Notes under the pieces: model-generated
What the model was told of the DNA's origin: nothing
The model's database searches: none
What the model saw: only the letters and a program-made list of their open reading frames with translations
Source of the DNA: a virus
Taxonomy: Duplodnaviria; Caudoviricetes
Virus record (IMG/VR): IMGVR_UViG_3300010376_000079
Location: 1 to 37,787 of that record
Direction: 5' to 3' (one strand)
DNA: 37,787 nucleotides
Translations under genes and position numbers: made by a program
Shown here: positions 4,271 to 37,770 of the stretch, piece after piece
Position numbering within the stretch: the first letter of the stretch is position 1
How the letters are laid out: every line of letters begins with the position of its first letter

Positions 4271-4638
4271 GTCGGTTAAACGAGAGTCGGCTCTGCCGTG
4301 CGACCGGGACGCATTCCTGGCACCTGGTGGGGCCGATTGTCGTCCTCGCGTCGGAGGGCCGGCGCGTCACGCTCGAGTGCGCACGGTGCGGGACGGTACG
4401 CATCGACGTCTGGTCGCGCCGCCACGGCGGCATCGAGCGACGGGGCTATCAGCGCCTCGCGGAGTACGCAGCCTATCTCAAAGACCACAACCGGGACGCA
4501 GCACGTTTAGACATCTTAGACAATACAAGAGAGGTTAAGGATGAAAGTAAGTACCCTCGCCTGCGACTTGTGCAAGGGCGTCGTTCCCGCCGTCGTCACG
4601 CTGTCGCTGACAAGCGACGACACGCCGCGAAAGGGTGA
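4267..4638 (+). CDS. Zinc-binding hypothetical protein
   Basis: ATGA coupling. CRATGTHSW and LECARCGTVRID. The 3' end overlaps the next gene by 98 nt. Confidence 0.7.
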   Translation: MSRLNESRLCRATGTHSWHLVGPIVVLASEGRRVTLECARCGTVRIDVWSRRHGGIERRGYQRLAEYAAYLKDHNRDAARLDILDNTREVKDESKYPRLRLVQGRRSRRRHAVADKRRHAAKG

Positions 4639-5095
4639 TCCAGCAATCGACGTGTGCAAGGGGCATCTGGCAGAGCTCCGGGCGGCCTTCACCCCGCGCA
4701 AACGCGGGAAGCTGAAGACGGCGCTGGGGCGCGCACGGGTACGCAGCACGCAGGCGCGACTGGCCGGCGTCCAGGCGAAGCGCGAACGCGAGCGGGAGCG
4801 CCATCAGCAGAACGCACCGACGAAGCGGGACGCAGCGCGGGCGTTCATCGACCACGCGATCCTGGCCGCGATCCCGATGGGGGAGCGCACCGCCCGCGAC
4901 GCGATCTTGAAGCGCACCAAGTTAACCGTGGCGGTGTATGCTAAGGGAATCAACCGGCTGGTCGAGCAAGGCTTCGTCGAGGCGTATGGGCCGAAATCCA
5001 AGATGCGGCGGTACGAGCGGACCGTGAGGGGAGACCGATGGGAAGCGAACCAGAAGACGATACCAGCGTCGAACGCGTCTTCACCCCAGGGATGA
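4541..5095 (+). CDS. Putative DNA-bridging protein: Zn-type Lsr2-like N-terminal domain, basic linker and winged helix
   Basis: The N-terminus aligns by eye with the Lsr2 dimerisation domain (KVSTLACDLCKG...IDVCKGHLAELRAAF). The C-terminus has a wHTH pattern (ILAAI...RDAILKRTKL...GINRLVEQGFVEAYG...RRY). RBS GAGAGG. Confidence 0.55.
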   Translation: MKVSTLACDLCKGVVPAVVTLSLTSDDTPRKGDPAIDVCKGHLAELRAAFTPRKRGKLKTALGRARVRSTQARLAGVQAKRERERERHQQNAPTKRDAARAFIDHAILAAIPMGERTARDAILKRTKLTVAVYAKGINRLVEQGFVEAYGPKSKMRRYERTVRGDRWEANQKTIPASNASSPQG

Positions 5096-5328
5096 AGCGG
5101 CGGTCGGTTGTCCGTGTGCTCAAGAATGCGATGCATGATGCGCAACGCGAGCTCGGCACCGATCGCGTCGTCGGCATTTTCGGCATCGTCGTCCGGGAGG
5201 ATGGGACGGCGAGTCTCTTGTCGGCGGTCACCACCGACGAGCTCCGGATCGTGATGAAGGCGATCCCCGAGGCGCTCCACAAGATCGCGATCGAGATCAC
5301 GACGGGGAGGCGGGAGATGGGGCAATGA
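5038..5328 (+). CDS. Hypothetical protein
   Basis: RBS GAGGGG before 5038. An alternative coupled start lies at 5092. Confidence 0.65.
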   Translation: MGSEPEDDTSVERVFTPGMKRRSVVRVLKNAMHDAQRELGTDRVVGIFGIVVREDGTASLLSAVTTDELRIVMKAIPEALHKIAIEITTGRREMGQ

Positions 5329-5495
5329 GAACGAAAGCGCCGGCGCGCTGGACGTTCCGAGGGTGGGAGGAGGTGATCGAAACCTACAATCGGATGGCGA
5401 CGCATCTGCTGTGGGAGGAGCTCGTCACGCTGCACTCGAAGATGGCGGAGATCCACGCGATCTTGGAGCGGCGGACGAAGGGAGCGGAGGAATGA
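5325..5495 (+). CDS. Small hypothetical protein (56 aa)
   Basis: ATGA overlaps at both ends. MRTKAPARWTFRGWEEV...KGAEE*. Not in the ORF track. Confidence 0.65.
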   Translation: MRTKAPARWTFRGWEEVIETYNRMATHLLWEELVTLHSKMAEIHAILERRTKGAEE

Positions 5496-5806
5496 AGGCG
5501 CGAGTGAAACGCAAGAAGCCGATCCGGCGCGTCGTCGTCGAGAGCGGATGTCTCGCGGAGGCGCTCAAGAATGCGCACCGGATCGTGGGCGAGCTCGGCG
5601 CGGCGATCGTGGCGATGCATGCCACCGCACGCGACGCGGGGCTGCTGGTCGATGTCGAGTGCGAGATCCCGAGTGACGAGGTAGACGCCATCCGCGACAA
5701 GATCGGGGCGATCATCCTCTGTCTATCGCCGGCGGCGCGCTATACCATGCCGACGCTCTTGGCGATGGCGGCAGATGATGATGCACAAGAGGAGGTTGCG
5801 CACTGA
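5492..5806 (+). CDS. Hypothetical protein
   Basis: ATGA coupling. Start MKARVKRKK. Confidence 0.7.
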   Translation: MKARVKRKKPIRRVVVESGCLAEALKNAHRIVGELGAAIVAMHATARDAGLLVDVECEIPSDEVDAIRDKIGAIILCLSPAARYTMPTLLAMAADDDAQEEVAH

Positions 5807-6054
5807 TGACTGACGTGAATCTGGCCGGGACCGTCTACATGGGGGCGAAGCGGCTCGTGCGTTTAACCGAGGCGATTGCCTGGCTCGAGGATCGCAAGGA
5901 GCAGATCGTGGACATCGGCATGGCGACGCAGGACGGGACGACGGGCGTCACCGTGTGTCCCGTGTCGCGGACGAAGCTCTTGGAGCTTCTGCGAGCCGAG
6001 GAGGCGTTCGTGGGACATCAGCTGGCCCGCATGACGCAGGGCGCCTACGCGTGA
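5806..6054 (+). CDS. Hypothetical protein
   Basis: RBS GGAGG and TGATG coupling. Confidence 0.7.
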   Translation: MTDVNLAGTVYMGAKRLVRLTEAIAWLEDRKEQIVDIGMATQDGTTGVTVCPVSRTKLLELLRAEEAFVGHQLARMTQGAYA

Positions 6055-6398
6055 AGACCGGCTGGCTCGCCCGGGAGCGGAAGCGGAGAGCGAAGTTGGA
6101 CGAGGATAAACGTTTACGCGAGGTGGTCCATCGGGTGGCGTTGGCGCTGGGCGAGGTGAAGGTGGTCGAGCGGCGGAAGGACGGCGTCGTCCTTGATCGC
6201 GCCGTCGCCAATAAGGATGCCCTGGTACGCGCACGGCGGGCGTACCGCACGGCGGCGACGGCGATCGGCGCGGTACGCATCGCGGCAGGGACCGCGACCG
6301 GGCGCACGCCGCTCGATCGGGAGCGCCGCGTCGTCTTGGAGTGCATGCGCCGGTTGACCGGGCTCGAGCGCGAGCTGACGGAGCTCGAGCGGCTGTAG
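6051..6398 (+). CDS. Basic helical hypothetical protein
   Basis: GTGA coupling. Arg-rich and coiled-coil-like. Confidence 0.6.
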   Translation: MKTGWLARERKRRAKLDEDKRLREVVHRVALALGEVKVVERRKDGVVLDRAVANKDALVRARRAYRTAATAIGAVRIAAGTATGRTPLDRERRVVLECMRRLTGLERELTELERL

Positions 6399-7520: not shown

Positions 7521-8525
7521 TTGGAAGGGGTGCGTGCTGTGGGCGAAGCCAACGGACGGCTGGTCGTCGATAACTCGATCCTCTCCGCCACGGCGAAGTG
7601 CAGTACGTATGCGTATGTCCGGTACGCCTGCGGGCTGAACACCAAGGACGAGAGTCTCGCGCTGCGTGCGGGCTCTGCCATCCACGTCGGCTTCGCGGTC
7701 TGGCTGTCTGGGGGGAAGCCGGCAGAGGCCATCCGGGCGATGTCGGAGGACTACGAGCACGCCGTCGAGCTCTATCTCCGGAAGGTCGAGCGCGAGCGTT
7801 TGAGCGCAGATGATCGCCGCTTCCAGCCGGAGTGGGTCGAGGCGATCTTCACGCAGTATCTCACCCGCTACGAGAAGAAATGGCCGTTCAAGGTGATCGA
7901 GCCGGGGTCGGCGGAGCGTCCGATCTCGGCACCGTTCGAGGTGACGATTCCGTCCGGGAAGGAGGTCACCTATGTCGCGCGGTTAGACGCAATTGTCAGA
8001 AAGTGGGAGTCAGGTGGGAAATGGTTGATGGATCACAAGTCCACGAAGAAGGTGAGCGAGTGGTGGGAGGCGAAGCAGAAGACGTCATCCCAATTTTCCG
8101 GACAGATGTGGCTGGCGCGCACCATGCCACTCGACGCCGAGGGCGTCGTCCTGAATGTGATCGAGGTCCCGGAGCCGCATCGGTCGGTCAACAAGTGTCG
8201 GGATCACGGAGTCTCCTATCAGGAGTGCTCCATCCGGCACGCGGGCTCGACCTTCATCTATGTCACGCGGAGCGAAGCGGAGCTCGAGGCGTGGGTCTTC
8301 TCTGCGAAGAAGCTGATCCGGAAATATGATCGGCTCCTCGCTCGCGCGGAGGAGATGGGCGTCGCGGGCGTCGTCGGCGTCCCGATGGAAGGGCGTTTCA
8401 ACGAGGGGTGTACGTTTTGCTCGATGAAGGAGTGGTGTCGGCTCGGGAGGAACGTGAGGAAGCCGGCGGTCCGGGCGACCTTCGTGAGCGACGTCTGGGA
8501 TCCGTTGAAGGAGACCGACGCCTGA
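7521..8525 (+). CDS. PD-(D/E)XK nuclease (Cas4/RecB-like exonuclease)
   Basis: GSAIH, RLDAIV and LMDHKST catalytic pattern. An N-terminal Cys plus C-terminal CTFC-x5-C suggests an Fe-S site. The real start may be GTG 7539, after RBS GGAAGGGG. Confidence 0.85.
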   Translation: MEGVRAVGEANGRLVVDNSILSATAKCSTYAYVRYACGLNTKDESLALRAGSAIHVGFAVWLSGGKPAEAIRAMSEDYEHAVELYLRKVERERLSADDRRFQPEWVEAIFTQYLTRYEKKWPFKVIEPGSAERPISAPFEVTIPSGKEVTYVARLDAIVRKWESGGKWLMDHKSTKKVSEWWEAKQKTSSQFSGQMWLARTMPLDAEGVVLNVIEVPEPHRSVNKCRDHGVSYQECSIRHAGSTFIYVTRSEAELEAWVFSAKKLIRKYDRLLARAEEMGVAGVVGVPMEGRFNEGCTFCSMKEWCRLGRNVRKPAVRATFVSDVWDPLKETDA

Positions 8526-8974
8526 TGGCGAAGAAGCGCAGCGAGTTTAACCAACTGCTCGAGATGGAGTGCGGCGAGATTCCGCCGTACACCGGGAAAT
8601 TCTGGGAGTATTTCGACGCCAATCCCGAGGTGTGGGTGCTGATCCGCGACATCGCGAAGGCGAAGCTGAGTCAGGGACGGCGGTTTGGGATGAAGCAGAT
8701 CTTCGAGCGCATCCGGTTTGGCTACCCCGGCATGGCAGCGACCGACCCGGACGGCACGGGGCTGCGTTTACCCAATAATTATACAGCGTACTATGCAAGG
8801 TTGCTCGTGTTCGTTCGGCCAGACATGGGGGACCTGTTGGTGCTGCGGCAGTTGCATCCCAATGGCGGACACCGGGGTGGGAAGCCACTCCCGTTCAACA
8901 AGACGAAGACCGATGCCGTGGGGGCGCGGGTCGTCTATCTCTGGCAGCACGGGACCTGGCCCGAGGAGGAGTGA
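8525..8974 (+). CDS. Conserved phage hypothetical protein (NP.V...I.E.IR...NNY.AYYAR family)
   Basis: TGATG coupling and a recognisable phage motif pattern. Function unknown. Confidence 0.75.
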   Translation: MAKKRSEFNQLLEMECGEIPPYTGKFWEYFDANPEVWVLIRDIAKAKLSQGRRFGMKQIFERIRFGYPGMAATDPDGTGLRLPNNYTAYYARLLVFVRPDMGDLLVLRQLHPNGGHRGGKPLPFNKTKTDAVGARVVYLWQHGTWPEEE

Positions 8975-10863: not shown

Positions 10864-13467
10864 ATGCGAACACCGTTCAAACGCACCAAGCGACGCCTCG
10901 TCCGGGGGGTCGGTCCGAGGGATGCGCGGATCATCCTCCTGGGCGAGGCGCCGGGGGCGGACGAGGCATGGTTTGGTGAGCCGTTCATCGGGCAGGCGGG
11001 CGAGCTCCAGCAGCGCGAGGGCTGGGGGCCGGTGGGGATCAGGCGAGAGGGGGTACGCATTGAAAACGTCGTGGAGGAACGACCCCCCGGGAATCGACTC
11101 GAGGCGCTCCAGCCGAGTGCCGTCCGGTGGTGGCAGGGACACGCACGCCGGCGGCTCGATCGGCTCGTCGAGGGGGCGGTGGCGGCGGGTCGGTCTCCGT
11201 GTGTGGTGCCGGTGGGCAATCTGGCGCTGGCGACGTGTCTGCGGGACGATCTTCCGACGATCCTGAACGGGCCGAAGGCTGGAGAATGGCGGACGAGGAA
11301 GCCGTCAGGGATCCAGTGGCGCTCGAAGATCACGCAGTTTCGCGGGTCGCTCTTGGAGTACAAGACCGCGAACGGGGTGCGGTGCCGGATGATCCCCACC
11401 ATCCATCCCGCTGCGCTCCTCTACCGGGAAGCCGGGTATCAGGCGTGGCTGGGGGACTGGCGGCGGATCGCGCGGGAGGTCGAGCGAGGCTGTCCGCCCT
11501 TGCCGCGCGCAACGGATCATATCGCGGCAGGACCAGGAGATTGCCGGCGCTGGCTGGAAGACGCGCTGCGTGATGGCGGTCCGATCGCGGTGGACCTGGA
11601 GACGGCGGGTCCCCAGATTTTGTGTGCAGGCGTAGCGCAGCATGGCGATGCCTCCCTCGTCATTCCCCTGGTGGATCCCGAGAGCGGCACGCGCGTCCCG
11701 TGGGGCTGGGGATACCTGCATCGTATCCTTGGGTCGGAGCTTGTCAAGGTTTTCTGGAATGGCCTGTTCGATACCTTTCTCCTTCGGTGGAACAAGGTCC
11801 AGTTTAAACGCTGGCTCTGGGATGGGTTGGCGATGCACCATCTCCTGGATCCCGGGGACCGGCATACCCTGGCGTACTGCGCGTCACGGGATCTCCGGAC
11901 GATCTTCTGGAAGGAGGAGAGTAAGGAGACGGAGGTGGGGCCGAGGGGCGGACTCAAGCGGAAGACGGCGAATTGGGCGCAATTTTTGCGCTACTGCGGG
12001 AAGGATGCCAGGCACACGATCGAGTTGAAGGAGATCTACCATCGCCGGCTCGAGCGGTGGGGCTTACTCGACATCTACAAGCAGCACTATCGCACGGTGA
12101 TGCTGGCCGCGCTCGACTTGAGTCTCGAGGGCTTCATGGTGGACGAGCTCGAGCGCGATCGGCTCCACGCGCTCGCGATGTCGCGGCTCGAGGCGCTGCG
12201 CCACACGATGACGGAGGTGGTCGGCTATCCGCTGACGACCGGACCACGGGTCCTCAAATCCGGGAAGCGGAGCCAGGCGAAGAACCAGCCGAAGGGCGGG
12301 CTCTCCAATCCTGCTATCATGAAATACTTCTACGAGGACCGGAAGATCCCGCCGTACAAGAAAGGCGGGCGGCGGACGTGTGATGAGGTGGCCGTCCGGC
12401 GGATCCAGGTCCGGTATCCGAAGAAGGCCGGGGCGGTCCCGCAAGCCATTCTCGAGTTTCGCCATCAGGAGAAGGTCGCGCAGTTTACCGCGCGGACGCG
12501 TTTAGACACGGACGGACGGATGCGCTCGCTCTTTCGTCCGCTCACGGATACCGGGCGGTGTCGCGCGCAGACGCCGCCCACCGGGATCGGGACGAATTTA
12601 CAGAATCAGCTTCGGTCGATCCGCTCGATGTTCGTGGCGTCGAAGCCGGGGCATCTGCTCCTCGAGCTCGACGAGAGTCAAGCCGAGAGTCGGCTCGTCG
12701 ATGGAGCGTCGGGCGATCCGAGGGCGCTCGCCCTGGCACGGACGCCTCCAATGCAGTTGGACCAGCATCGCCTGATGGCATCCGAGGTCTTGGGGAAAGA
12801 GGTGATGGAGGTGACGCCATCGGAGCGGGAGAACGTCGGCAAACGCGGCAGACATGCGTGCAACTATGGCATGGAGGGGCTCCGGTTTAGCGAGGTCCTG
12901 ATTAAGGAGACCGAGGGCGAGGTCGTCCTCACGCCGGACGAGTGTCAGACGATCATCGACAAGGTGATGGCGGCGCGCCCGTACATCGCCACCTGGCAGG
13001 CATGGCGCCGGGAGCAGATCATCCGGGACCGGAAGATCGTCAACTCGTATGGCAGGTACTTACTGTTTAACGGCAGACTGTTAAGTAAGGAAGATTATAA
13101 GCAGGGGTATGCCTATGGGCCACAGAGCGATGTCGGGTGTCTGTTGACCCAGGAAGGGTGGGTGCCGGTATGGGATCGAATTCGGAAGGCAAATATGAAT
13201 TCCAGAGTTGTCTTGAACGGACACGACTCCTTCGTGCTGGATGGACCGCCGGACGAATTATGGGAGCTCGCGCAGCGGGCCATCGAGCGGATGATGGCGG
13301 AGCGGGAGTACCAGGGGGTGAAGGGACCGTGGACGCTCCGGATGCCGGTCGGGATGAAGGTGGGCGTGCGGTGGGGCCAGGGGATGATCGAGTGGAAGCA
13401 GGCGGAGCTCGTGAGTCATCAGGACTGGCAGCGGGTCGTCGGCGGATTGTTACGTGGTGCCGCGTGA
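10864..13467 (+). CDS. polA: Family A DNA polymerase with N-terminal uracil-DNA glycosylase-like and 3'-5' exonuclease domains
   Basis: UDG family-4 motifs GEAPGADE, PFIGQAG and HPAALL. Exo I DLET, Exo II NGLFD, Exo III YCGKD. Pol motif A DESQAESR, B KRGRHACNYG, C HDS. Start uncertain (10807 or 10864). Confidence 0.93.
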   Translation: MRTPFKRTKRRLVRGVGPRDARIILLGEAPGADEAWFGEPFIGQAGELQQREGWGPVGIRREGVRIENVVEERPPGNRLEALQPSAVRWWQGHARRRLDRLVEGAVAAGRSPCVVPVGNLALATCLRDDLPTILNGPKAGEWRTRKPSGIQWRSKITQFRGSLLEYKTANGVRCRMIPTIHPAALLYREAGYQAWLGDWRRIAREVERGCPPLPRATDHIAAGPGDCRRWLEDALRDGGPIAVDLETAGPQILCAGVAQHGDASLVIPLVDPESGTRVPWGWGYLHRILGSELVKVFWNGLFDTFLLRWNKVQFKRWLWDGLAMHHLLDPGDRHTLAYCASRDLRTIFWKEESKETEVGPRGGLKRKTANWAQFLRYCGKDARHTIELKEIYHRRLERWGLLDIYKQHYRTVMLAALDLSLEGFMVDELERDRLHALAMSRLEALRHTMTEVVGYPLTTGPRVLKSGKRSQAKNQPKGGLSNPAIMKYFYEDRKIPPYKKGGRRTCDEVAVRRIQVRYPKKAGAVPQAILEFRHQEKVAQFTARTRLDTDGRMRSLFRPLTDTGRCRAQTPPTGIGTNLQNQLRSIRSMFVASKPGHLLLELDESQAESRLVDGASGDPRALALARTPPMQLDQHRLMASEVLGKEVMEVTPSERENVGKRGRHACNYGMEGLRFSEVLIKETEGEVVLTPDECQTIIDKVMAARPYIATWQAWRREQIIRDRKIVNSYGRYLLFNGRLLSKEDYKQGYAYGPQSDVGCLLTQEGWVPVWDRIRKANMNSRVVLNGHDSFVLDGPPDELWELAQRAIERMMAEREYQGVKGPWTLRMPVGMKVGVRWGQGMIEWKQAELVSHQDWQRVVGGLLRGAA
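13047..13116. other. In-frame AT-rich codon patch in polA
   Basis: TAT GGC AGG TAC TTA CTG TTT AAC GGC AGA CTG TTA AGT AAG GAA GAT TAT. Confidence 0.75.
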
Positions 13468-19614: not shown

Positions 19615-19627
19615 ATAGCTATCTCGC

Positions 19628-22568: not shown

Positions 22569-23273
22569 TTAGGGGCGGCGACCGTAGCCCCACGTCGGCG
22601 TCGAGAAGACGAGCGGATCGAGTTGGACGGTGGCGGGGTAGCTCCGTTCCGGGAACGAGCCACCGCGCGCACGATTCACCGTGTCGGCGTTCACGGAGTA
22701 TTGCTCCCCGCGACGCGGGTCCACCTCGTAGGACTGCGCCCACTCGAACATCAGATCGGTCAGGAGGACGTCCCACTGGAAGATCGGGACGTCGGCGTCG
22801 TAGGCAACCGCGTCGGAGAGCGGGAAGTCGGGCGGCATGAATTTGTAGCGGAAGGTCGCCTGGCAGGTGTCGGTCGGGAGCGGCCAGGCGCGGCCCACGG
22901 GAGGGACGTTGCCGTAGTCGATTGTCCAGATGCGGGGGCGTGCGGACATCACGTTGGGTGAGGTCGCTTGCTGGAGTTGGAAGGCGCGGTGGTCGGTCTC
23001 GGTGACGATGGAGGGTTGCTGGACGCCACCGGCAGAAGTTATCATGAGAGACTGATCGTCTTCTGGCTTGACGAAGTTGTCGGGGAGGGCGATGAAGCCG
23101 TTGGTTTGAATCGTGAGCGGTCCCATCGTCCAGAGGAAGGGCCAGTCCCAGCCTTGGTAGAGCTCTTGGAGAATTCTGTTGAGGCGGAAGCGGCCCGCAT
23201 TCTTGAGCGACGCCGTCGTGTTGCCGACGCGCTGGAGGGCTTGGTCGAGGATGTCACCCCGCGTCGAACGCAT
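22569..23273 (-). CDS. Head-tail adaptor / tail tubular protein A
   Basis: LNRILQEL...WPFL...LPDNF...P....WPLP pattern and position. Confidence 0.7.
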   Translation of the reverse strand: MRSTRGDILDQALQRVGNTTASLKNAGRFRLNRILQELYQGWDWPFLWTMGPLTIQTNGFIALPDNFVKPEDDQSLMITSAGGVQQPSIVTETDHRAFQLQQATSPNVMSARPRIWTIDYGNVPPVGRAWPLPTDTCQATFRYKFMPPDFPLSDAVAYDADVPIFQWDVLLTDLMFEWAQSYEVDPRRGEQYSVNADTVNRARGGSFPERSYPATVQLDPLVFSTPTWGYGRRP

Positions 23274-26281: not shown

Positions 26282-26617
26282 CTACCTACCTTCAAACGTA
26301 TGGACGTTTGGATTGTATTCGGGAGTTTCGTCTGTGGTCTGGGACGAGGCAGCCAGTTGGGTATATTGGAGAATCATTTGCGGGCCACCATGTAGCAGAA
26401 GCGTGAGTTGCTGAATAGCGCCCCAGCGCGTCTCGAGCGTCTCGAAGCCCTGGAGGGGCGCGCCCAAGAGGGCTTCGCGTTGCGCCTCCAAGCCGGCTCG
26501 CAGGCCAAGCCAGACGTCGGAGATCTCGATGGCGCGGAGGTGCGCCTGGGCGGTTTTGCCAAAGAGCGGGTGCTCGTCTTCGGGTTTCGGCTCGAGCTCG
26601 AAGCCACGCCGGAGCAT
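26282..26617 (-). CDS. Hypothetical protein
   Basis: RBS GGAGG. Lies between portal and scaffold. Confidence 0.65.
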   Translation of the reverse strand: MLRRGFELEPKPEDEHPLFGKTAQAHLRAIEISDVWLGLRAGLEAQREALLGAPLQGFETLETRWGAIQQLTLLLHGGPQMILQYTQLAASSQTTDETPEYNPNVHTFEGR

Positions 26618-29287: not shown

Positions 29288-30018
29288 CGGAGTTGGAGCA
29301 CCTGGATCTGGCCGAATGCCCAGGTGAGGGAGACGGTCGCGTTGGTGGTCGTCATCGCGACGGCGAGGTCCCAGCGCGCGGCGCCCACGGGGGCAGGCGG
29401 CTTCGCGACCCGGACGATGGTGAGCGGGATGTAGAAGAAGCCGGCCTTGGTGAGCGTGTAGGCGAGATTGCGCGTCTGCTGGAGTTGGCCCGGAGGATCA
29501 CCTCGGTAGAGCCCCACGTTCCAGGCGATATTCTGGGCGGTGCCAGGGTCCGTGTTGAGGCCGACCTGGAAGGAAACGTTGGCGAAGACGAGATCCCAGC
29601 GCGTCGGTTCTTCGGTCGCGTCGGTGGCACACGTACAGAGTTGCTGCTGGGTCGTGATGGTGGTCGTGATGGTGCCGTTGCCCGGGGTGCCGACCCAGGC
29701 GCCCTGGACGGTGGCGGCAGGGGGGAGGGCGGCGGGATTGAGCGAGCCGGCAGGGAGAATGATCGAATGGCCGACGTTCAGATCGGAGGTCTGGAGGGAC
29801 GTGATGGCGCCGGTCGGAGCCTGAAGCTGGCCAGCGGTGAGGATGCCAGCGATGGACGCGTTGCCGGTGACGTCGAGATCGCCCTGGACCTGGAGGTTGC
29901 CGGGGATGATCGTCGCCACGGCCATCGTGCCGAGGAGCGCGTCGATCTTCTGCCAATTCGCGTTTTCGGCAGCGTCCTGGCCGAGCGAGAGGTGGAGATT
30001 AGGCGTCTGGTCGGGCAA
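29284..30018 (-). CDS. Fibre/spike paralogue
   Basis: TTG start after RBS GAGGAGGGG. N-terminal QTPNLHLSLGQDAAENANWQKID, then GNLQVQGDLDVTGN repeats and a beta-rich head. Confidence 0.7.
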   Translation of the reverse strand: MPDQTPNLHLSLGQDAAENANWQKIDALLGTMAVATIIPGNLQVQGDLDVTGNASIAGILTAGQLQAPTGAITSLQTSDLNVGHSIILPAGSLNPAALPPAATVQGAWVGTPGNGTITTTITTQQQLCTCATDATEEPTRWDLVFANVSFQVGLNTDPGTAQNIAWNVGLYRGDPPGQLQQTRNLAYTLTKAGFFYIPLTIVRVAKPPAPVGAARWDLAVAMTTTNATVSLTWAFGQIQVLQLR

Positions 30019-30223
30019 CGCCGTTCCCCTCCTCAAGCGTCATCGCGGCCTTCGCGATCTCCTCGTTTGCACGCGCCAGGTCTTCCAGGGCGAGGATGGC
30101 GCCTTCGAGTTGGTTCGTGCCGGCCTTGGCGAGCTCCAAGGCGCGCTCGAGCTCCGCGACGCGGCCCTTCTGGGTCGAGAGTTGGGTGCGGTAGGTCTCG
30201 AGCTTGGATTGAATGTCTACCAT
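29999..30223 (-). CDS. Small coiled-coil protein, possibly a fibre chaperone
   Basis: Heptad pattern and location among the fibre genes. Confidence 0.6.
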   Translation of the reverse strand: MVDIQSKLETYRTQLSTQKGRVAELERALELAKAGTNQLEGAILALEDLARANEEIAKAAMTLEEGNGVARPDA

Positions 30224-30403: not shown

Positions 30404-31771
30404 CTAGCCTCCGATCTCGCACATGCGGAGCGTCCCCGAATTGGACGCCGTGCCGTTGATGCTCCCGCTTGTCCCGGCCCCCATCCAGACTTGGTACTTG
30501 TACGTGTGGGCGCCAGCGGCGGGATAGTCGATCCAGGTGAAGGCGACGAGGGGCGTCACGACCGCGCCGCCCATGTTGCGCGGGATCTCTGCGATCGTGC
30601 CGCCGTCGCGGAGCAAATACTGATCGACGAGCACGTTCCCGCTCGCGCCGAGTTGGATATAGGAGAGGTTCATGTTGACGGTGATGATGACCGGGCCACC
30701 CTTGGTCGTGATAGTCTGAGAGATCACGTCCATGGGAGTCCCATAGCTATTGTAGGTGCCTCCTGTCTGGGCAGCGGCGTTGGTGGCGCCGTTCAAGCCC
30801 GGGGCGTTGTACTTGCCGGTGATGGTCAAGTTGCCGCCGCTGGAGAGGGAGAGCGGGACCGAGGATGCCCAGGTCGTCGGTGCCCACCGCTGGATTTGAA
30901 AGAGATCGCTCGCGGTGTGGAAATACGCTGCCCACCCAGCAACCGTCTGGTCATCGCCCGCCCACGCGCCGCCCCACATGGCGTTGGCGGTGATGCCGTA
31001 CCACCCGGGAGCACCCGCCAGACCGCCGACGCGCATCTTCTGGGTATCGACGCCGAGCTTGAGCGCCATGCGGTCCGTCGCAACGGTGCTGATCGGACCA
31101 GGGATCGTCAGCCGACCCGCGTTGTCGAGGACCAGGAAATTCGTGTAGCTGCCCCCTGCCGCGACGTGCGCCACGCTCCAGTTGTCCGCGTTGACGTTCA
31201 GGAGTTGCTGCCACGCGGGCTTCGTGCCGTCGTCCACCGTGCCGCTCGACGGGTCACGATTGACCGAGAGCGAGAGCCAGGTATTCGGCTGGCTGTTGTC
31301 GGTCTGGATCCGTCCCTTGATCGTGTTCGCGCCGAAGATGTGCGGGACGATCGCGCTGGCGGCTCCGGGCGTGTAGAGGACCTTGGTCGCGTCGGTCGGC
31401 TGGAGGAAGGCACCGGAGATGGTCCAGGGCTGGGAGGTTACTGGTAAGCCTGTTATAATGCCAGTCTTATCAATAACTACACTATCGACGCCTTCGATGT
31501 TGATGACGAGGCGGGTCGGGTGCGTGGTGGGAGTCCAGTCGGCGGTCGCCTCGGCGCGGAGTTGGGCACCCTGGGTCGCGAGCGCGTTCGGATCGAAGCC
31601 GAGCCAGACGAGTTGGCCGAGTTGGTCGCCGGAGAGGATCCCATCGGTGGCCGGGAAGCCCGAGTGCGCGCGGCGCCAGCGGGATTCGGGGACCGGCGTC
31701 CCGGCATTCCCGGTCGCACAGGTGCCTTCGGCTTCGAGCGCGTAGGGGTAGTGCTGGTAGGTGATGGGCAT
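30404..31771 (-). CDS. Tail fibre / receptor-binding protein
   Basis: L.LD..G.L.I repeats and a C-terminal ITTKGGPV...D.PAAG..TYK domain. Confidence 0.75.
   Translation of the reverse strand: MPITYQHYPYALEAEGTCATGNAGTPVPESRWRRAHSGFPATDGILSGDQLGQLVWLGFDPNALATQGAQLRAEATADWTPTTHPTRLVINIEGVDSVVIDKTGIITGLPVTSQPWTISGAFLQPTDATKVLYTPGAASAIVPHIFGANTIKGRIQTDNSQPNTWLSLSVNRDPSSGTVDDGTKPAWQQLLNVNADNWSVAHVAAGGSYTNFLVLDNAGRLTIPGPISTVATDRMALKLGVDTQKMRVGGLAGAPGWYGITANAMWGGAWAGDDQTVAGWAAYFHTASDLFQIQRWAPTTWASSVPLSLSSGGNLTITGKYNAPGLNGATNAAAQTGGTYNSYGTPMDVISQTITTKGGPVIITVNMNLSYIQLGASGNVLVDQYLLRDGGTIAEIPRNMGGAVVTPLVAFTWIDYPAAGAHTYKYQVWMGAGTSGSINGTASNSGTLRMCEIGG
31437..31485. other. In-frame AT-rich codon patch in a fibre gene
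   Basis: GAT AGT GTA GTT ATT GAT AAG ACT GGC ATT ATA ACA GGC TTA CCA GTA. Confidence 0.8.
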
Positions 31772-31785
31772 CTGCGTTTACCGGA
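31771..31785. repeat. 15-bp exact repeat, copy 2 (TCTGCGTTTACCGGA)
   Basis: Spans the long-fibre stop and the next gene's start. Identical to 24164-24178. Confidence 0.7.
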
Positions 31786-34429
31786 GTTGCCCCGCCTCGA
31801 AGAATTGGGCGTAGGCGGTCATCACGTTCCCGGCGTTCGAGGTGTCGTACTGGCCCTGAACGTTCAGTTGCGCGCTCGAGCTCGATTGGAGGGATGCGAC
31901 CCCGCCGCGCGACATGTAGCAGACCGTCACGCCGGCGGTGGCTTGCGTCGCGGGATCGGTCGTCAGCCACATCTTGACGGTGTAGTAGGACTGACCGAGA
32001 TAGAAAAGGATGTCAACGTCAAGGAAGAAATTGGCATTGGCCCAGGAGACGGCGCCCGAGGGCCAGGTGAAGATGGTGACCGGGGCAGAGGCGAGTCCCC
32101 AGAGCACGTTCAGGGTGACCTGGCCCGCAGCGCGGGCGATCGAGCCGTGGAGGGTGAAATGGTAGTGGCGCGTCACGGCGATGCCGCCCGAGGGCCACGG
32201 CCAATTCATCGCCCGGAGGTTGAAGGCGGTCGTCGAGGAGGCGCCACCGGTGTTCGATTGCGCGTCGCCCTTTCCGTGGACGAGCCAGGAGGGATACCCG
32301 GCGCCGATGCCCGTCTGGCCGACGAATTCGGCAAACAGGCATTGGATGTTGTCGAGTTGACTGCCGGAGCCTTGATGATTCAGGACGAAGATCTGTGCGG
32401 GGGAGCCGCCACCGTACCAGTTGTAGAAGCCGACGTTGTGATTGCCGGCTTGCTGGTTGGCGGCGAGGAGCCAGTCTTCCGTCGTCCCGCACACCATGTG
32501 GAAGGCAGCGAGTTGGTTGACACCGGGGTTGGTGGAGGCGACCCGGATCTCGGTGACGCCGTTCGTCACTTGGTTGGCGGAGTAGGCGTAGAAGCGGAGA
32601 TCGTTGACCGTCCCCGCCGGCGTGGTGGTGGTGCCGAGATAGACAGCTTTGCCGATGGTGACCGGGTGAATCGAGGTGGCGTCTTCGGCCCACGGCGAGG
32701 AGACACTCTGCCAGCCGTCGAGTTGGACCCAGGCGCCCGCGACGCGTCCGAGGAAATGGCCCCCCTGGTACTGGAGGGTGCCGTCCTTCGCGGCGAGGGC
32801 CGAGGCGACCATGATGCCACCGGTCGCGAGCTCGAGCCGTTCGGTCGCGACGGCGTTGTCGCCAAAGCGCCAGAGTCCGCCGGCGGTGAAATTGGCAAGG
32901 CAACTTGCCGAGTCCTGCGGCTTGAACCACATCCCCTGTGCCGCGACGTTGATCCAGAGGAGGTTGTCGTCGGCGGAGATGCCGGTGCGGCGCTGGATGG
33001 CAGGGAAGGTAGAATGCCTGAATGTGATGGTGTCGGAGGGGCACTGGAAGGCGATGCCGTAGTTGGCGATCGGGGGCGCGGGGACGAGGGCGTTGTTCGC
33101 GTCGTCCTCGGCCCAGAGGCCGGTGGCGGCGGCTCCGGGGATGTCCACCCAGGCGCCCCCGACGCGGCCCTGGAAGCCAGTCCCCGTATACTGGAGCGTA
33201 CCATCGAGCGGCGAGACGGCGCGTGAGGCGGCGATGACGACGGCGCCGGCGACCCGCAGCATCTCCGGGACGGGGGCGACGGCGGTGCCGATCGAGAGCC
33301 CGGGTTGCGTGAAGCCGGTGCCGGGGATGGCGACCATGCCGTCAGCGGTGGCGAGGAGCGCGTATTGCGGAGCACCGGTCGCCAGCGGGGTGATGGCGAG
33401 ATACCAGTTGGTGCCTTGGTGCGTACCGGACGTCCACGCTTCGGCAGCGTTCACTTGTTCGGTAAACGCGGTGGTCCCGATCGCCGGCATGACGTCGCGC
33501 CGGTAGAGTTGCATCCCGGAGGTGACGCTCCCCATCGGCATCGACGTCTTCACCGTGGACGGCGTCCCGAGGGTCCCGGAGGCGATGGTCAAGGGACCGG
33601 TGATGACGGGATAGGTGCCTTTCTGGGGCTGGAGTTGCGCGCCGGTGTCGAGCCAGGGACCAAGGGTCGTCGGATCGGCCCACTTGGTGTCGAAGTCCGC
33701 TGCCGAATTCTTGATGAGCGCGAAGCCCGTGGCGCCACCGGTCGGCAGGCCGTTCAAGGCGGGAACGTTGTCGAGTTGCTGCCACGCGGTGCCATCGTAG
33801 CCCCGGAAGTGCTTGGTCGCGGAGTTGTAGTCGAGGGCGCCGGCGACGAGACCACCGGACCAGCCGCCGAGGAGGACGCCGAGGGTGGCGGAGAGGCGCA
33901 GTTGGGCGGTGATCTGGGACGCGTTCATCAGGAGCCATGGGAGTCCCGAGGCGCCGTAGAGCTCGAGCGTCGCGCCGGCGCCTTGGCCGGCATAGAGCTT
34001 CAAGCTGTCGCCGGTGCCGACGAGATGCGGGGCGTTGGCCGAGAAGGGGCCGAGGGAGAGTGCCTTCGAGTCGGAGAGCTCGACGGCGGTGCCGGAGGGA
34101 TAGGGCTGGATGGCACCGGCGACGGAGCCGGCTTGCCAGTACTGGACGATGCTGCCGCCGGCGTTCGGTTGCCAGACCGGCACAAGGGACGGATTCAAGG
34201 TGAGCACGTCGCCCACGTTGCCGGGGAGCGGGAGGAGGCGAGCGACGATCGCCGGGTCGAGCATGTCGATCGTGATCATGCCCGGACCGATCAGATCCCC
34301 GATGAGCTTAGCTACTACTCTATAAAGCCTATCATCTATAATGGCCCAGTTACGATTCTCGGCAGCGTCCGAGCCGAGGTCCAGGTGGAGATAGGGGGTC
34401 TGGGTAGACCGATCGCCGTTCTCGCTCAT
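31778..34429 (-). CDS. Long tail fibre protein (883 aa)
   Basis: Start MSENGDRSTQTPYLHLDLG. Three G.L.Y...F.G...GAW repeats and LPTGG.TG..L.K.S..DFDT.W. Confidence 0.8.
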   Translation of the reverse strand: MSENGDRSTQTPYLHLDLGSDAAENRNWAIIDDRLYRVVAKLIGDLIGPGMITIDMLDPAIVARLLPLPGNVGDVLTLNPSLVPVWQPNAGGSIVQYWQAGSVAGAIQPYPSGTAVELSDSKALSLGPFSANAPHLVGTGDSLKLYAGQGAGATLELYGASGLPWLLMNASQITAQLRLSATLGVLLGGWSGGLVAGALDYNSATKHFRGYDGTAWQQLDNVPALNGLPTGGATGFALIKNSAADFDTKWADPTTLGPWLDTGAQLQPQKGTYPVITGPLTIASGTLGTPSTVKTSMPMGSVTSGMQLYRRDVMPAIGTTAFTEQVNAAEAWTSGTHQGTNWYLAITPLATGAPQYALLATADGMVAIPGTGFTQPGLSIGTAVAPVPEMLRVAGAVVIAASRAVSPLDGTLQYTGTGFQGRVGGAWVDIPGAAATGLWAEDDANNALVPAPPIANYGIAFQCPSDTITFRHSTFPAIQRRTGISADDNLLWINVAAQGMWFKPQDSASCLANFTAGGLWRFGDNAVATERLELATGGIMVASALAAKDGTLQYQGGHFLGRVAGAWVQLDGWQSVSSPWAEDATSIHPVTIGKAVYLGTTTTPAGTVNDLRFYAYSANQVTNGVTEIRVASTNPGVNQLAAFHMVCGTTEDWLLAANQQAGNHNVGFYNWYGGGSPAQIFVLNHQGSGSQLDNIQCLFAEFVGQTGIGAGYPSWLVHGKGDAQSNTGGASSTTAFNLRAMNWPWPSGGIAVTRHYHFTLHGSIARAAGQVTLNVLWGLASAPVTIFTWPSGAVSWANANFFLDVDILFYLGQSYYTVKMWLTTDPATQATAGVTVCYMSRGGVASLQSSSSAQLNVQGQYDTSNAGNVMTAYAQFFEAGQLR
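34308..34356. other. In-frame AT-rich codon patch in the long fibre gene
   Basis: ATT ATA GAT GAT AGG CTT TAT AGA GTA GTA GCT AAG. Confidence 0.8.
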
Positions 34430-34439
34430 GGGCACCCGC

Positions 34440-35135
34440 TCATGGGAGCTCGTAGCCCCAGGCCGCGCCGCCGTTCGAGACGACCGAGACGGCGGTCGAA
34501 GACGTCGCCACCATGAGATGGTAGGTGACGGTCTGCGCAGCGCGCTGGTCGAAGGCGAGGAGCGTCGGCATCGGGACCTGGACGACCGTGCCGCCGGTGT
34601 TGCCGGTGAGCGTGACGGCGGGTTGCTGGAGCCAGACGTCGGGCGGGTTGAGGGTCGCGACGCCCCAGCCGAGTCCCGCCCAGACGGCGGTGCCGGTCGG
34701 CTGCGCGGTAAACTGGATCTGGGCGCCCAGGGAGGCCGCGAGGAGGATCGGGCCACCGCGCGTCGTGATCGCAGGGAGCGCGAGCACCTCCTGCCACGTC
34801 GGGCCGGGGTTGTAGGTATGGGCGCCCGAGAGGATCTGCTGGGCGAGGGTGCGGGTCTTCAAGGCTGCGATGGTGAGCGAGCCGTTCGGAAGGGTGACGG
34901 GGCCATTCGGCACGGCGAGCCAGCCTTCGACGTCGAGCCCTTGGACATGGGTCGCGCCCGAGACATCCACATCGCCCGGGACCTGGAGCGGCGAGGGAAG
35001 CTGGAGCACGGAGCCCGGGAGGAAGGCGCGGGCGATCGTGTCGTCGAGGATCCACCAATTCTGGTTGAGCTCGTCGTAGGCGCCGAAGCGAAGCCGGAGC
35101 GTCGGGGTGCGCTGATCGAGGGTGGGTTCGGCCAT
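34440..35135 (-). CDS. Fibre/spike paralogue
   Basis: N-terminal RTPTLRLRFGAYDELNQNWWILD and C-terminal ITTRGGPILL domain. Confidence 0.7.
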   Translation of the reverse strand: MAEPTLDQRTPTLRLRFGAYDELNQNWWILDDTIARAFLPGSVLQLPSPLQVPGDVDVSGATHVQGLDVEGWLAVPNGPVTLPNGSLTIAALKTRTLAQQILSGAHTYNPGPTWQEVLALPAITTRGGPILLAASLGAQIQFTAQPTGTAVWAGLGWGVATLNPPDVWLQQPAVTLTGNTGGTVVQVPMPTLLAFDQRAAQTVTYHLMVATSSTAVSVVSNGGAAWGYELP

Positions 35136-35137
35136 GG

Positions 35138-35776
35138 CTAGATTGCCGAGATGTCTATGAGGTAGTAGTAGCCGCCGATCGCCTGCGAGGGAGGGGCGTC
35201 GCCCATTGCGTAGTAGCCGGTTCCGGAGAGGAAGTAGTCGCCCTTCGTCGTGTCGGGGACTTGGCCGGAGCCGACCGAGGGATAGATCGGGGTCGAGAAG
35301 TAGGCCGCGACCCGGATCGCGACGTTTGCCGCGAGGGGGATCGGCGGGGTGAAGGTGACGTGCTGCCACCCGGAGGCCGACTCGCCGGATGAGGTGACGG
35401 TGCCAAGGACGGAGAGATCACTGTCCTTGTAGACCGTCACCTTGTGCGTGGACGCGGTGTCGGTGGGGTCCTTGTAGAAATAGGCACCGAGGAGGGTCTT
35501 CCCCGAGGTGTGACAGGTGAATTGGGTCGCGACCGTGATCGGGCCGTTGTTCTGGGGTCCTTCCGTGGCACCCGGGGGCATGCTCGCCGGTGCCCAGAAG
35601 ACGCCAGCGGTCCGATTCGCGGGAACGACGACGTTGGCGTAGGCATCGACGGAGCAGACGAAGGCGGTGAGGGCCGAGGCTTCCCACGGGGTACCGCAGC
35701 GCGGACACGTTTGTACGAGGAGCGTCGGGTCGTGGGTGTCAAAGTACTTCCAGATTTTCGGTGTCGGCGGCATCAC
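35138..35776 (-). CDS. DUF4082-like domain protein with an N-terminal CxxC
   Basis: G..FYK...TH...GESASGWQHVTF..PI.L.AN matches the DUF4082 pattern. Confidence 0.7.
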   Translation of the reverse strand: MMPPTPKIWKYFDTHDPTLLVQTCPRCGTPWEASALTAFVCSVDAYANVVVPANRTAGVFWAPASMPPGATEGPQNNGPITVATQFTCHTSGKTLLGAYFYKDPTDTASTHKVTVYKDSDLSVLGTVTSSGESASGWQHVTFTPPIPLAANVAIRVAAYFSTPIYPSVGSGQVPDTTKGDYFLSGTGYYAMGDAPPSQAIGGYYYLIDISAI

Positions 35777-36132
35777 CCCTCAAACGGCGTCAGGACGGGA
35801 GGACCCCAGCCGAGCCCGTACATCGCGGCGACGATCTTCCCGAGGTTTGCGTTGACGATCGCGTTGACGGTGGGACGGATCATGCGATTCGCGGCGACGA
35901 CCTGGGGGGTCGCAAAGAGCCCGTCGATGACGTCGAGCGTTTCGTTCCACGCGCGATCGGTCGCGTAGGGGAGCCCGAGGACCGGGGTCTGGGAGAGATC
36001 GGGGACGCGGAAGGCCAAGGCGGCGCTGTTCTTCTTGGCGACCCACGCGGCATCCAGGCGATCGAAGGTGAGATTCAGGTCCGCGTCACTCACGTAGGCC
36101 ATCCCGAGTCCCGAGGTTCGATCGACGCCCAT
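35773..36132 (-). CDS. Small protein with two copies of the fibre N-terminal motif
   Basis: RTSGLGMAY...LNLTFDRLD and QTPVLGLPY...WNETLDVID. RBS AAGGAGG. Confidence 0.7.
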   Translation of the reverse strand: MGVDRTSGLGMAYVSDADLNLTFDRLDAAWVAKKNSAALAFRVPDLSQTPVLGLPYATDRAWNETLDVIDGLFATPQVVAANRMIRPTVNAIVNANLGKIVAAMYGLGWGPPVLTPFEG

Positions 36133-36162: not shown

Positions 36163-37032
36163 TTACCAGAGTCGGTCGCTGGAAGCCAGCTTGGTTAGTT
36201 GCTGGGTCCGATCGGCGCCCGCTGCCTCGAGATTGTCGCAGCCGTAGCGGAAGGCATCGACGAGATCCTTGTGCGGATGCGTCTTCACCGGGCGATACGG
36301 GGGCAGCGACGAGAGATGAAACGCACCACTCAACGCCTCGATGAGATTCGGGCAGCGCGGCGAGATCAGGATGGCCGGATCGTGGCCCACGCGAGGAATG
36401 AAGACGCGGCGGAGGAAGCGTTCTCTCAGGTTGGCGTAGCTGACCTCCTTGCCGGGGCGGTTGGTGTGCATGTGGATGCCGGCCCGCTCGAGGAGCGCCG
36501 CGATGGTGCCGAGGGAGCCGACCGAATTCACCTCCGGGTCGCCGGCGTCGAAATAGTCACTGCGGGTGACGAGATCGGTCGCGATCGCGCTGACGACGGG
36601 GAGGAGTTGGTCGAGCGGGGTGTTGAAGGGACAGAGCTCCCGATGGATCAGGATCTGGCCATAGGTCGAGAGTTGGCCAAAGAGGACGACCGGGCTGACG
36701 GCGCCAAAGTCCCAGAATCGGAGGAGTCGAGCATCCCGGGTGACGGGGGATTCCCGGACGTGGAGGTTCGGGTCGAATTCCGGGACGACCGGCTCGCCCT
36801 CGGGGGAGGACCAGGAGATCTCGTACTCGCGTTGCCAGGCACGGAGGGAGAGCCCTTCCGAGGTCTTCTTCTTCCACTCGCCGGCGCGTTTCGTCGGGTC
36901 GGCGGTATAATGGAGTCGTAAGACAAAGAAACCATTCCTGGCATTCCGCCACTCCGTGACGCCCGTGCGCGGCGTGTCGGCCGACTCCGGGGGCCGGTCG
37001 AGGACGCGCAGATTTTCGAGCGTCTCGCTCAT
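36163..37032 (-). CDS. terL: Terminase large subunit, C-terminal (nuclease) half only
   Basis: LHYTADP, W.REYE, G.PV..EF, RNase H-like FWDFG, CPNLIEAL and HKDLVDAFRY. No Walker A or B. Confidence 0.85.
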   Translation of the reverse strand: MSETLENLRVLDRPPESADTPRTGVTEWRNARNGFFVLRLHYTADPTKRAGEWKKKTSEGLSLRAWQREYEISWSSPEGEPVVPEFDPNLHVRESPVTRDARLLRFWDFGAVSPVVLFGQLSTYGQILIHRELCPFNTPLDQLLPVVSAIATDLVTRSDYFDAGDPEVNSVGSLGTIAALLERAGIHMHTNRPGKEVSYANLRERFLRRVFIPRVGHDPAILISPRCPNLIEALSGAFHLSSLPPYRPVKTHPHKDLVDAFRYGCDNLEAAGADRTQQLTKLASSDRLW

Positions 37033-37337
37033 CGCGGCCAGAGCGCGCCCTGGGGTGGTGCCAGGAGCGGGGCGAGCTCCTCCTCGGCTGGGGTCGGAGG
37101 GCCAAAGGGAAGGTCGTACTGATCGGGCGGAGGTTGGTCGGCGCGCTCTCCGAGACGGAAGCCTAACAAGAAGAATTGGACGCTTGTTTGATCTGGAAAG
37201 TGGACGCGTTCGCCAAAGGAGGCGATGCCATCGACGCCCTGGCCGGTGGGCGACTCGAGGACGATCATGGGGACCTGGAGTTGCCAGAATTGCGCGCGGA
37301 CGGCGTCCGCGAAGGCGTTAGCGGGGGCGCCCGTCAT
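37029..37337 (-). CDS. Hypothetical protein
   Basis: ATGA-coupled to the terminase half gene. Confidence 0.6.
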   Translation of the reverse strand: MTGAPANAFADAVRAQFWQLQVPMIVLESPTGQGVDGIASFGERVHFPDQTSVQFFLLGFRLGERADQPPPDQYDLPFGPPTPAEEELAPLLAPPQGALWPR

Positions 37338-37440
37338 CGTCTTTCCGGGAATCGAGCCATGCCCAGAGAATGTCCAAGCCGACCAAGGCGAAGACGATCA
37401 GGAGGAGGGCACCCAGGATGAAGGAGACCGTGAGCCACAT
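37318..37440 (-). CDS. Small single-TM membrane protein (40 aa)
   Basis: MWLTVSFILGALLLIVFALVGLDILWAWLDSRKDDDGRPR*. Starts just after the upstream stop. Not in the ORF track. Confidence 0.55.
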   Translation of the reverse strand: MWLTVSFILGALLLIVFALVGLDILWAWLDSRKDDDGRPR

Positions 37441-37441
37441 C

Positions 37442-37729
37442 TCACCGCTTCTGGCGCATCAGCGCCGCCATCGCCTTCTTCCCGGCTGCCGTCTTCATCC
37501 GGGGGACGTCGCCCTCGCTGCGACGCTCGCGCCGCGATTCGGTCCGCTCATGGCGTGGGGTGTCGCCGCGCTCCGGGTCCTTCTTCGCGGGGAGCCCCTG
37601 CGTCTTGGTGGCGGCGAAATCCCGGAGTTGCTTCGTCGTCATCTTGACGGAGGTCGGCTTCCCCGCCTTTTTGGCGGCGTACTCCATCCCCATGAAATGC
37701 TGCTGCGCCTTGGAGACGGATGGCATCAC
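37442..37729 (-). CDS. DUF3008-like basic protein
   Basis: MPSVSKAQQ..MG......K.G...M..KQLRDFA.TK..GLP.K pattern. RBS GGGAG. Confidence 0.7.
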   Translation of the reverse strand: MMPSVSKAQQHFMGMEYAAKKAGKPTSVKMTTKQLRDFAATKTQGLPAKKDPERGDTPRHERTESRRERRSEGDVPRMKTAAGKKAMAALMRQKR

Positions 37730-37736
37730 GCACTCC

Positions 37737-37770
37737 CTATATATATGTAATATATAGTTAGCATTGGTAA
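37737..37770 (-). promoter_or_regulatory. AT-rich palindrome at the head of the late operon
   Basis: CTATATAT-ATGTA-ATATATAG inverted repeat directly upstream of an RBS. Confidence 0.5.

Follow-up and report, generated by a model that had tools for sequence, protein, structure and literature searches.

Short TpA-rich patches encoded by codon choice across a GC-rich phage family, and a candidate phage protein that may dock on them

Why should a phage whose genes end nearly every codon in G or C break off, for about a dozen codons at a time, into the rarest codons it has? Silencers normally punish AT- and TpA-rich foreign DNA, and yet a family of GC-rich soil phages accepts the burden of rare codons and retains such words in its capsid, portal and polymerase genes. 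The question is raised here by IMGVR_UViG_3300010376_000079, a virus record of 37,787 bases (GC content 65%, CheckV completeness 85%), which was analyzed at its full length and is called the window below. A first-pass annotation had listed 20 such places, rich in TpA steps (T followed by A), and had proposed a second, DNA-level code overlaid on the genes. Across the family the patches are far more numerous than chance would give, and their codon choice favors TpA, CTA and TAG while avoiding A-tracts and CpG. As to their function, we tentatively favor, at slightly less than an even chance, docking sites for an oligomerizing DNA-binding protein, most likely the phage's own product of gene 4541–5095, which would bridge DNA rather than silence it.

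Are the patches more than the chance tail of codon usage? The codon test covered 52 curated genes (12,031 codons) and scored 12-codon windows of A/T-ending codons against 300 within-gene synonymous shuffles. At a score of at least 7, ten windows were observed as compared to 0.91 in the shuffled genes (standard deviation 0.92, maximum 4). The counts were 8 and 0.21 at a score of at least 9, and 17 and 3.7 at a score of at least 5, so that runs of A/T-ending codons clearly exceed the shuffled expectation. The TpA counts, which were computed with the last gene on the wrong strand (corrected in the codon test), gave 9 windows of 40 bp with at least 6 TpA against 2.1 expected, and no excess at the low threshold of at least 4 TpA (29 against 28.3).

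When a patch is called clear at a codon score of at least 7 or with at least 6 TpA in 40 bp, the list of 20 places proves too long. Fourteen are clear, namely those starting at 4504, 8766, 13047, 14755, 19601, 21308, 21451, 22477, 25144, 27786, 29044, 31437 and 34308, and the intergenic one at 37737. Two are borderline (26281, score 5.7; 28388, 5 TpA), and four are weak, lying in the chance range of the codon test (27540, 30655, 31981 and 36906). The site at 36906 scores 11.0 on a separate rare-codon score and is common to the relative G003, and patches are present in relatives near 27540. Two patches with a score of at least 7 had not been listed (13174–13209 and 23034–23069). The tabulated patches of the window are as follows.

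4501–4553: TpA patch in the 3' part of gene 4267–4638, directly upstream of gene 4541–5095; codon score 10.2
8765–8800: TpA patch in gene 8525–8974; score 6.8, 6 TpA in 40 bp
13047–13116: TpA patch in the DNA polymerase gene, residues ~730–745; patches of G001 and G002 lie within ~12 codons
13174–13209: rare-codon patch in the DNA polymerase gene, absent from the first list; score 7.5
14755–14800: TpA patch in the primase/helicase-like gene; 8 TpA, 6 CTA/TAG
19597–19632: TpA patch at the start of the GNAT gene; site common to 4 genomes
21308–21356: strong patch in the gene of a 720-residue structural protein, residue ~403; score 16.3, hotspot in relatives
21451–21488: patch in the same structural gene, residue ~359; score 11.1, shared with G005
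22477–22520: patch near the 5' end of the same structural gene; score 9.1
23034–23069: patch in gene 22569–23273, absent from the first list; score 7.4
25142–25177: patch in the major capsid gene, residues ~107–118; score 10.5, hotspot
27786–27826: patch in the portal gene, residue ~488; codons in common with G002
28385–28420: borderline patch in the portal gene; 5 TpA, score 4.1
29044–29128: patch in the portal gene, residues ~55–80; site called in 4 relatives
31437–31486: strong patch in the fiber-like gene 30404–31771; score 15.9
34307–34356: strong patch near the 5' end of the gene of an 885-residue fiber-like protein; score 13.5, 20-base stretch identical in G001
37737–37770: intergenic TpA run upstream of gene 37442–37729 (minus strand); 11 TpA in 40 bp

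The patches are not assembly errors. Contigs from other soil studies span ten of them (4504–4552, 13047, 14755, 19601, 21308, 21451, 22477, 28388, 34308 and 37737) with 0–5 differing letters per contig and no gaps; this support was scored as presence only, and run X1, which may be the source of the record, was not counted. As had been stated, the patches share no long consensus: among the repeat families listed, no long shared motif or repeat was found, only short words. The earlier argument that amino acid content cannot explain the patch at 34308–34356, since a paralogous gene near 29950 encodes the same motif with mostly GC-rich codons, holds in part only: at this place the amino acid sequences of the two N-termini are not the same. 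A better case is made by orthologues that encode identical amino acids with G/C-ending codons. Within the borderline patch at 26281, a perfect short hairpin followed by T-rich sequence (26291–26312) lies at the end of gene 26282–26617 and may be a terminator rather than a patch.

Do the patches recur in other phages? Searches with the capsid, polymerase and portal found relatives with a GC content of 64–67%, two of which (G001 and G002) are complete with terminal repeats and many partial. At conserved amino acids their synonymous sites are only ~0.5 identical, which is near saturation, and the relatives can thus be treated for the most part as independent of one another. The family test, in which A/T third positions alone defined a patch, covered 14 core genes in 120 copies (40,045 codons) and gave 86 patches as compared to 3.7 expected (standard deviation 2.0, maximum 7 in 30 shuffles). 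This test left out L013 and L014 (54–56% GC, ~40% capsid identity), as well as L005, L009, L024 and L046, which were judged near-duplicates from matching identities and peaks rather than by direct alignment. The dispersion of TpA, an annotation-free measure that takes in intergenic runs, was 1.29–2.54 in nine of ten family contigs as compared to 0.88–1.19 in all seven cultured GC-rich phages (BigChungus, phiC31, phiKMV, Mx8, D29, and 50-kb parts of YuA and Bcep22). We prefer it to an automatic open reading frame (ORF) control, which gave 3–25 excess patches per 10,000 codons in the family and –0.7 to 5.5 in the cultured controls, since that control is noisy owing to wrong-frame picks. In two relatives the strongest TpA clusters are long intergenic runs of short TpA units, CTATA-like or CTA repeats (G003:23797–23890 and G004:23899–23995).

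The expectation that patch positions persist among relatives was borne out for the habit more than for the places. The 86 patches occupy 58 sites, spread over 13 genes; 18 of these sites are shared and 40 were seen in one genome only. The positions do cluster, though loosely (24 pairs within 6 codons as compared to 11.5, p 0.002; not significant at 25 codons). At the hotspots, some relatives have a patch while others use G/C codons for the same amino acids, with A/T endings there only slightly raised (0.18 as compared to 0.13); the major capsid hotspot at 25142–25177 behaves in this way at nearly identical amino acids. Sites are gained and lost among the relatives while the patch habit persists.

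Such coexistence of recoded and unrecoded alleles at conserved amino acids, together with a width of ~12 codons, like that of a target site, is what would be left by escape from sequence-specific cutters such as intein or intron homing endonucleases or CRISPR (clustered regularly interspaced short palindromic repeat) spacers. However, the 58 distinct sites lie in 13 genes, capsid and tail genes included, and the eight hotspot alignments examined contain no insertions. Among 38 portal homologues, the one protein for which this was surveyed (lengths 421–1343 searched), none exceeds 778 residues. Patch columns are barely more conserved than random ones (0.797 as compared to 0.779, standard deviation 0.013). 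Escape also predicts any mismatch rather than TpA, and CTA (0.37) is preferred over the more distant TTA (0.17) and TTG (0.06). We thus consider escape scars very unlikely.

What, then, does the codon choice select? After a second-position T, the third position is A rather than T in a ratio of 115:34 in patches and 164:238 outside, and T:A in patches is 77:13 before a following A as compared to 96:81 before other bases. Likewise, the AG-starting Arg codons are chosen after T in 34 of 52 cases in patches and in 29 of 179 outside. Out-of-frame TAG occurs 114 times, as compared to 5.4 expected from background usage and 71.5 from patch usage; CTA occurs 105 times on the coding strand, and TAG/CTA counts are similar on both strands. 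TAG[AT][AT], the reverse complement of WWCTA (W, A or T), is found 45 times against 25.8. Runs of three A or T are fewer than expected (75 as compared to 98.5), meaning that A-tracts are avoided, and CpG, GATC and A/T runs are low. Isoleucine is encoded by ATA (0.62) and ATT (0.20) in patches and by ATC (0.91) outside. The patches are 35–45 bp wide, with a GC content of 0.46 as compared to 0.65, and the rate of A/T third positions returns to background within a few codons; a local GC drop with TpA steps and few A-tracts is the trait of Rok/MvaT/CgpS-type nucleation sites. Helical phasing of TpA gave no convincing 10-bp series, with z 0.3 at 9 bp and weak values of 2.6–2.8 at 4, 10 and 16 bp. 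Since TpA is chosen across codon borders as well as within codons, and equally on both strands, the signal lies in the double-stranded DNA and not in single codons. The proposal of a DNA-level signal over the genes, which recurs in relatives near synonymous saturation, is in this respect supported.

Ribosome pausing, in which the rarest codons would tune co-translational folding or expression, had been another candidate. The patch codons ATA, CTA, GTA, AGA and TTA indeed make up only 1–4% of their amino acid's codons elsewhere, and the clustering of positions within 6 codons would suit it. It is weakened by the TpA choice across codon borders, by the lesser use of equally rare TpA-free codons (GTT 0.18 as compared to GTA 0.73), by relatives that lack the patch at identical amino acids, by the 40 single-genome sites and by the similar words that fill intergenic runs. 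Pausing remains a candidate, quite an unlikely one. Three further ideas were rejected. Out-of-frame stops ("ambush" codons) would include TGA, which is not raised (36 as compared to 31.6 in the background); transition-type hypermutation does not produce the shift from ATC to ATA, a transversion; and the patch folding energy (–11.7) is near that of random recoding with patch usage (–10.9), leaving no sign of RNA structure.

The words TAG and CTA also recall promoter elements. The window carries a set of five early-promoter-like sites.

356, 729, 1602, 2616 and 3309 (span 356–3340), plus strand: early-promoter-like sites, TTGAC/TTGTC followed by TA(G/C)(G/T)GTGG(T/C)T (pattern match)

In these sites a –10-like word, TAG, TAT or TAC, follows the TA(G/C)(G/T)GTGG box, which may be an operator or an extended –10 element of the phage's host; the pattern has one further match, at 35852. 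Intragenic promoters, sense or antisense, would account for the likeness of the patches to the early –10 boxes, for the enrichment of TAnnnT on both strands (89 as compared to 64, and 108 as compared to 86) and for TAGnnT on the coding strand (28 as compared to 15). Against them, TTGAC occurs 0 and 3 times (1.6 and 1.8 expected) and the extended –10 only 10 times (6.4 expected), a promoter scan of the window gives 6 sites with 1 in a patch, and many hotspots lie 1–2 kb from the next gene start. We rate this explanation highly improbable.

Could the patches instead be functionless relics, or tracts imported from a TpA-rich relative of lower GC content? The phage has a Sak4-like annealing protein and an exonuclease, the distant relatives L013 and L014 have a GC content of 54–56% and more TpA, and co-located patches share 0.48 of their codons as compared to 0.38 for independent draws. 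However, the amino acids of the patches match the family consensus as well as random windows or better (0.80 as compared to 0.77), where L013 and L014 differ, and the patches are narrow with sharp edges. Moreover, similarity in the flanks of shared patches does not exceed that of whole genes (0.62 in both), which argues against recent import. Relics or imports therefore have, in our estimate, a very slim chance.

If the signal is in the DNA, which protein might read it? The candidate lies in the early region.

4541–5095, plus strand: candidate reader of 184 residues, with a predicted Lsr2-type dimerization domain, a basic linker/helix and a C-terminal winged helix

Homologues were found in G001, G002, G006, G007 and L052. 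At E ≤ 0.001 a profile search yielded 68 proteins, and the alignment comprises 51 of similar length and one from another search; C8, D9 and C39 are invariant in it and H42 nearly so, and C8, C11, C39 and H42 of the N-terminal domain likely bind Zn. In the full model (predicted local distance difference test score, pLDDT, 89), a small domain at the N-terminus is followed by a long basic helix and then by a winged helix; folded alone, this N-terminal domain reaches a pLDDT of 88. A likeness of the N-terminus to the Lsr2 pattern had been spotted before the structure comparisons. In both aligners the Lsr2 dimerization domain ranks first: 4E1P in Foldseek (probability 0.96, template modeling score 0.56, E 0.1) and 4E1R in VIA-align (Z 5.2, root mean square deviation (rmsd) 4.2, 51 of 56 residues aligned). 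A homodimer prediction of residues 1–58 with Zn scored 0.27 against a mark of 0.42 and counts neither way. Residues 51–100 contain 17 Lys and Arg and 4 Asp and Glu. The C-terminus aligns with the PadR-type winged helix 5H20 (Z 11.1, rmsd 3.1, 91 residues); the AT-hook-like RGR loop of the C-terminal Lsr2 DNA-binding domain is replaced by this winged helix, and a GRGR sequence is found in the wing of some homologues and not in that of the window's protein. Z-alpha (Z-DNA-binding) domains are marked by a conserved Asn and Tyr in helix 3 and a Trp in the wing. This class was rejected, as the weak profile matches to ZBP1 and ADAR1 are accompanied by an alignment lacking that set. We do not place the protein in the Lsr2 or the Rok family; it is predicted to combine an Lsr2-type dimerization domain with a winged helix. 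Our literature search, which took in few subscription journals and no supplements, found no account of synonymous-site TpA patches in phages or of an Lsr2/winged-helix fusion; the actinophage Lsr2 domain tables of PMC8612146 could contain such fusions.

Gene 4267–4638 overlaps gene 4541–5095 by 98 bases on the plus strand, and G001 and G002 retain both genes with their overlap. The patch at 4501–4553 may serve the autoregulation of the candidate reader gene. The best 40-bp TpA counts upstream of its homologues are 7 in G002, 4 in G001, 4 in G006 and 3 in G007; an upstream patch is thus present in G002, weaker in G001 and G006 and absent in G007. In actinophages, a fall in GC content ahead of lsr2 has been interpreted as a sign of autoregulation (PMC8612146). 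The TAG-carrying early-promoter-like sites are possible further targets.

In the mechanism that we envisage, the protein would be made late in the early region and would dimerize through its N-terminal domain, with the winged helix recognizing flexible TpA steps in the manner of Rok. It would join patches ~1.5–3 kb apart into loops, and these loops would condense the genome during replication or give it shelter, in the way that host Lsr2 organizes mycobacteriophage DNA; in a possible second role, the protein might repress its own gene as well as the early promoters that contain TAG. The AT-binding bridging or silencing protein suggested by the first-pass annotation thus gains support from the predicted Lsr2-type domain and winged helix, and the bridging half of that proposal fits better. 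A patch of only ~35–45 bp in DNA of 65% GC favors bridging over the formation of long silencing filaments on essential late genes, the more so because a 50-bp core without a wider GC drop gave no CgpS silencing (PMC7002338). Nor do the patches sit as silencer targets do, at promoters within extended AT-rich regions; most are inside genes.

Several observations weigh against docking by the phage's own protein. At the DNA level, the earlier statement that patches recur every 1–2 kb is right as a mean (1.4 kb at the low threshold, 2.8 kb at the middle one; overall ~1–3 kb depending on the threshold), but even spacing is unreliable, and a periodic array finds no support, as the coefficient of variation reached p<0.05 in only 2 of the 20 genome/threshold tests completed. 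WWCTA on the coding strand (25 as compared to 23.6) is not above the patch-usage null, and L049, the tenth family contig, shows no TpA clustering. At the protein level, the Lsr2 match is modest (E 0.1, Z below 8, the same model in both aligners), the Zn-binding ClpG N1 domain is less than 1 Z unit behind (4.5), searches by sequence (Pfam PF11774, PDB) gave no match for the N-terminal domain, and the winged helix matches generic regulators, with Rok not among the matches listed. The distribution is also imperfect. Gene and patches occur together in three of the four records that cover the early arm, and these are all of one clade, so that they do not represent independent co-evolution. In the fourth, G004, the early arm is covered and the patches are strong (TpA dispersion 1.84), with no detectable homologue of the reader. 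An ORF of 294 residues with an N-terminal CxxC...H...C stretch occupies the gene's place there (L042:9427–10311, minus strand); it does not align with the reader family (HHalign probability 1.0 and 0.14) and has no family match, and it may be a functional replacement. Conversely, L052 (56% GC) encodes a family member and has no clustered patches, and the 6.6-kb G007 has the gene and no 40-bp bin with at least 4 TpA.

The patches of G004 would be accounted for if the reader were a host nucleoid protein (Lsr2, HU/IHF or another TpA reader) recruited for replication, the phage protein being a modulator or anti-silencer. All of the DNA-level evidence fits this equally, and mycobacteriophages need host Lsr2, for which their own Lsr2 proteins are no substitute (PMC10066036). 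However, A-tracts are what canonical Lsr2 favors, and G/C blocks it (PMC6212790), while the patches are 46% GC and short of A-tracts; TpA spacing has no peak at 9 bp, and searches of bacterial genome contigs with the capsid and with the reader family alignment gave no host match. A host reader is, in our judgment, unlikely. A broader form of the docking by the phage's own protein, namely that a chromatin code spanning the genome has evolved at silent positions in unrelated GC-rich phages, to be read by their own nucleoid protein, is doubtful; here, an undescribed, Zn-bound chimera of an Lsr2-type dimerization domain and a Rok-like winged helix would loop the genome between TpA patches and separate phage DNA from the host chromosome.

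The window as a whole is arranged in two arms. Early and replication genes are on the plus strand, comprising the exonuclease, the Sak4-like annealing protein, a family A polymerase with a uracil-DNA glycosylase-like domain and the primase-like gene, and the structural genes, including the major head protein and an SU10-type portal, are on the minus strand. No integrase was found among the 35 window proteins scanned, no cultured phage exceeds 60% identity to the window, and viral searches with the 720-residue structural gene and with protein P0042 gave no match. The following genes and segments were also noted.

29284–30036, 31778–34435 and 34440–35126, minus strand: three tail-region genes with a common N-terminal motif, TPxLxL...NWxxxD
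29963–30010 and 34356–34403: DNA segments of tail-region genes, 79% alike
35135–35786: variable tail-region slot, where contigs of runs X2 and X3 carry 212 other letters in place of the DUF4082 gene (35138–35776)
36163–37032, minus strand: separate gene of 289 residues, terminase-nuclease-like by sequence reading, without a family match; the ATPase part is not in the window

If the phage's own protein does read the patches, this would provide a function for phage-encoded Lsr2-like proteins, the roles of which are described as unknown (PMC10066036), would add a new domain combination to the DNA bridgers, and would mean that synonymous sites of phages can carry an architectural code.

How does this arrangement compare with known systems? 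Bridgers of the H-NS type consist of an oligomerization domain, a basic linker and a DNA-binding domain (PMC6936261). The predicted linker and winged helix of the 4541–5095 protein fit this plan, while oligomerization is suggested by the modest Lsr2 fold match. Rok of Bacillus subtilis likewise combines an N-terminal oligomerization module with a C-terminal winged helix, a domain that the phage protein has in a generic form. The words favored by Rok are AACTA, TACTA and TpA steps, while G/C is tolerated and A-tracts are disfavored (PMC6212790), much as in the patches; the fit is close but not complete, since only one strand has WWCTA in excess of the stricter null. Among the matches listed, the 4541–5095 protein has no sequence or structural match to Rok, and the neutral Gln linker of Rok contrasts with the basic linker and Lsr2-like N-terminus predicted here. 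Rok is further marked by N-T-R residues for the minor groove. Moreover, the words by which Rok reads foreign DNA are avoided by the host genome, whereas this phage maintains such words in essential genes of its own.

Lsr2 and the prophage-encoded CgpS of Corynebacterium glutamicum CGP3 (PMC7002338, PMC8612146) resemble the present case in the predicted Lsr2-type dimerization fold, in being phage-encoded, in the AT-rich stretch upstream of their own gene in some members and in target sites set apart by a lowered GC content and by A/T steps. The phage protein differs in having a winged helix in place of the AT-hook domain and a Cys/His set suggesting Zn. Furthermore, CgpS acts on promoter regions in which the GC content falls over a broad stretch, as compared to patches of 35–45 bp within coding sequence here. 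Closest in the proposed role is host Lsr2, which organizes the zones of phage DNA replication in mycobacteriophage infection (PMC10066036), a bridging protein acting on phage DNA in lytic growth, as the 4541–5095 protein may do. There, however, the protein is that of the host, and the available part of that account names no docking sites coded in the phage genes, whereas in the present family the sites would be written into the genes themselves and read by the phage's own protein.

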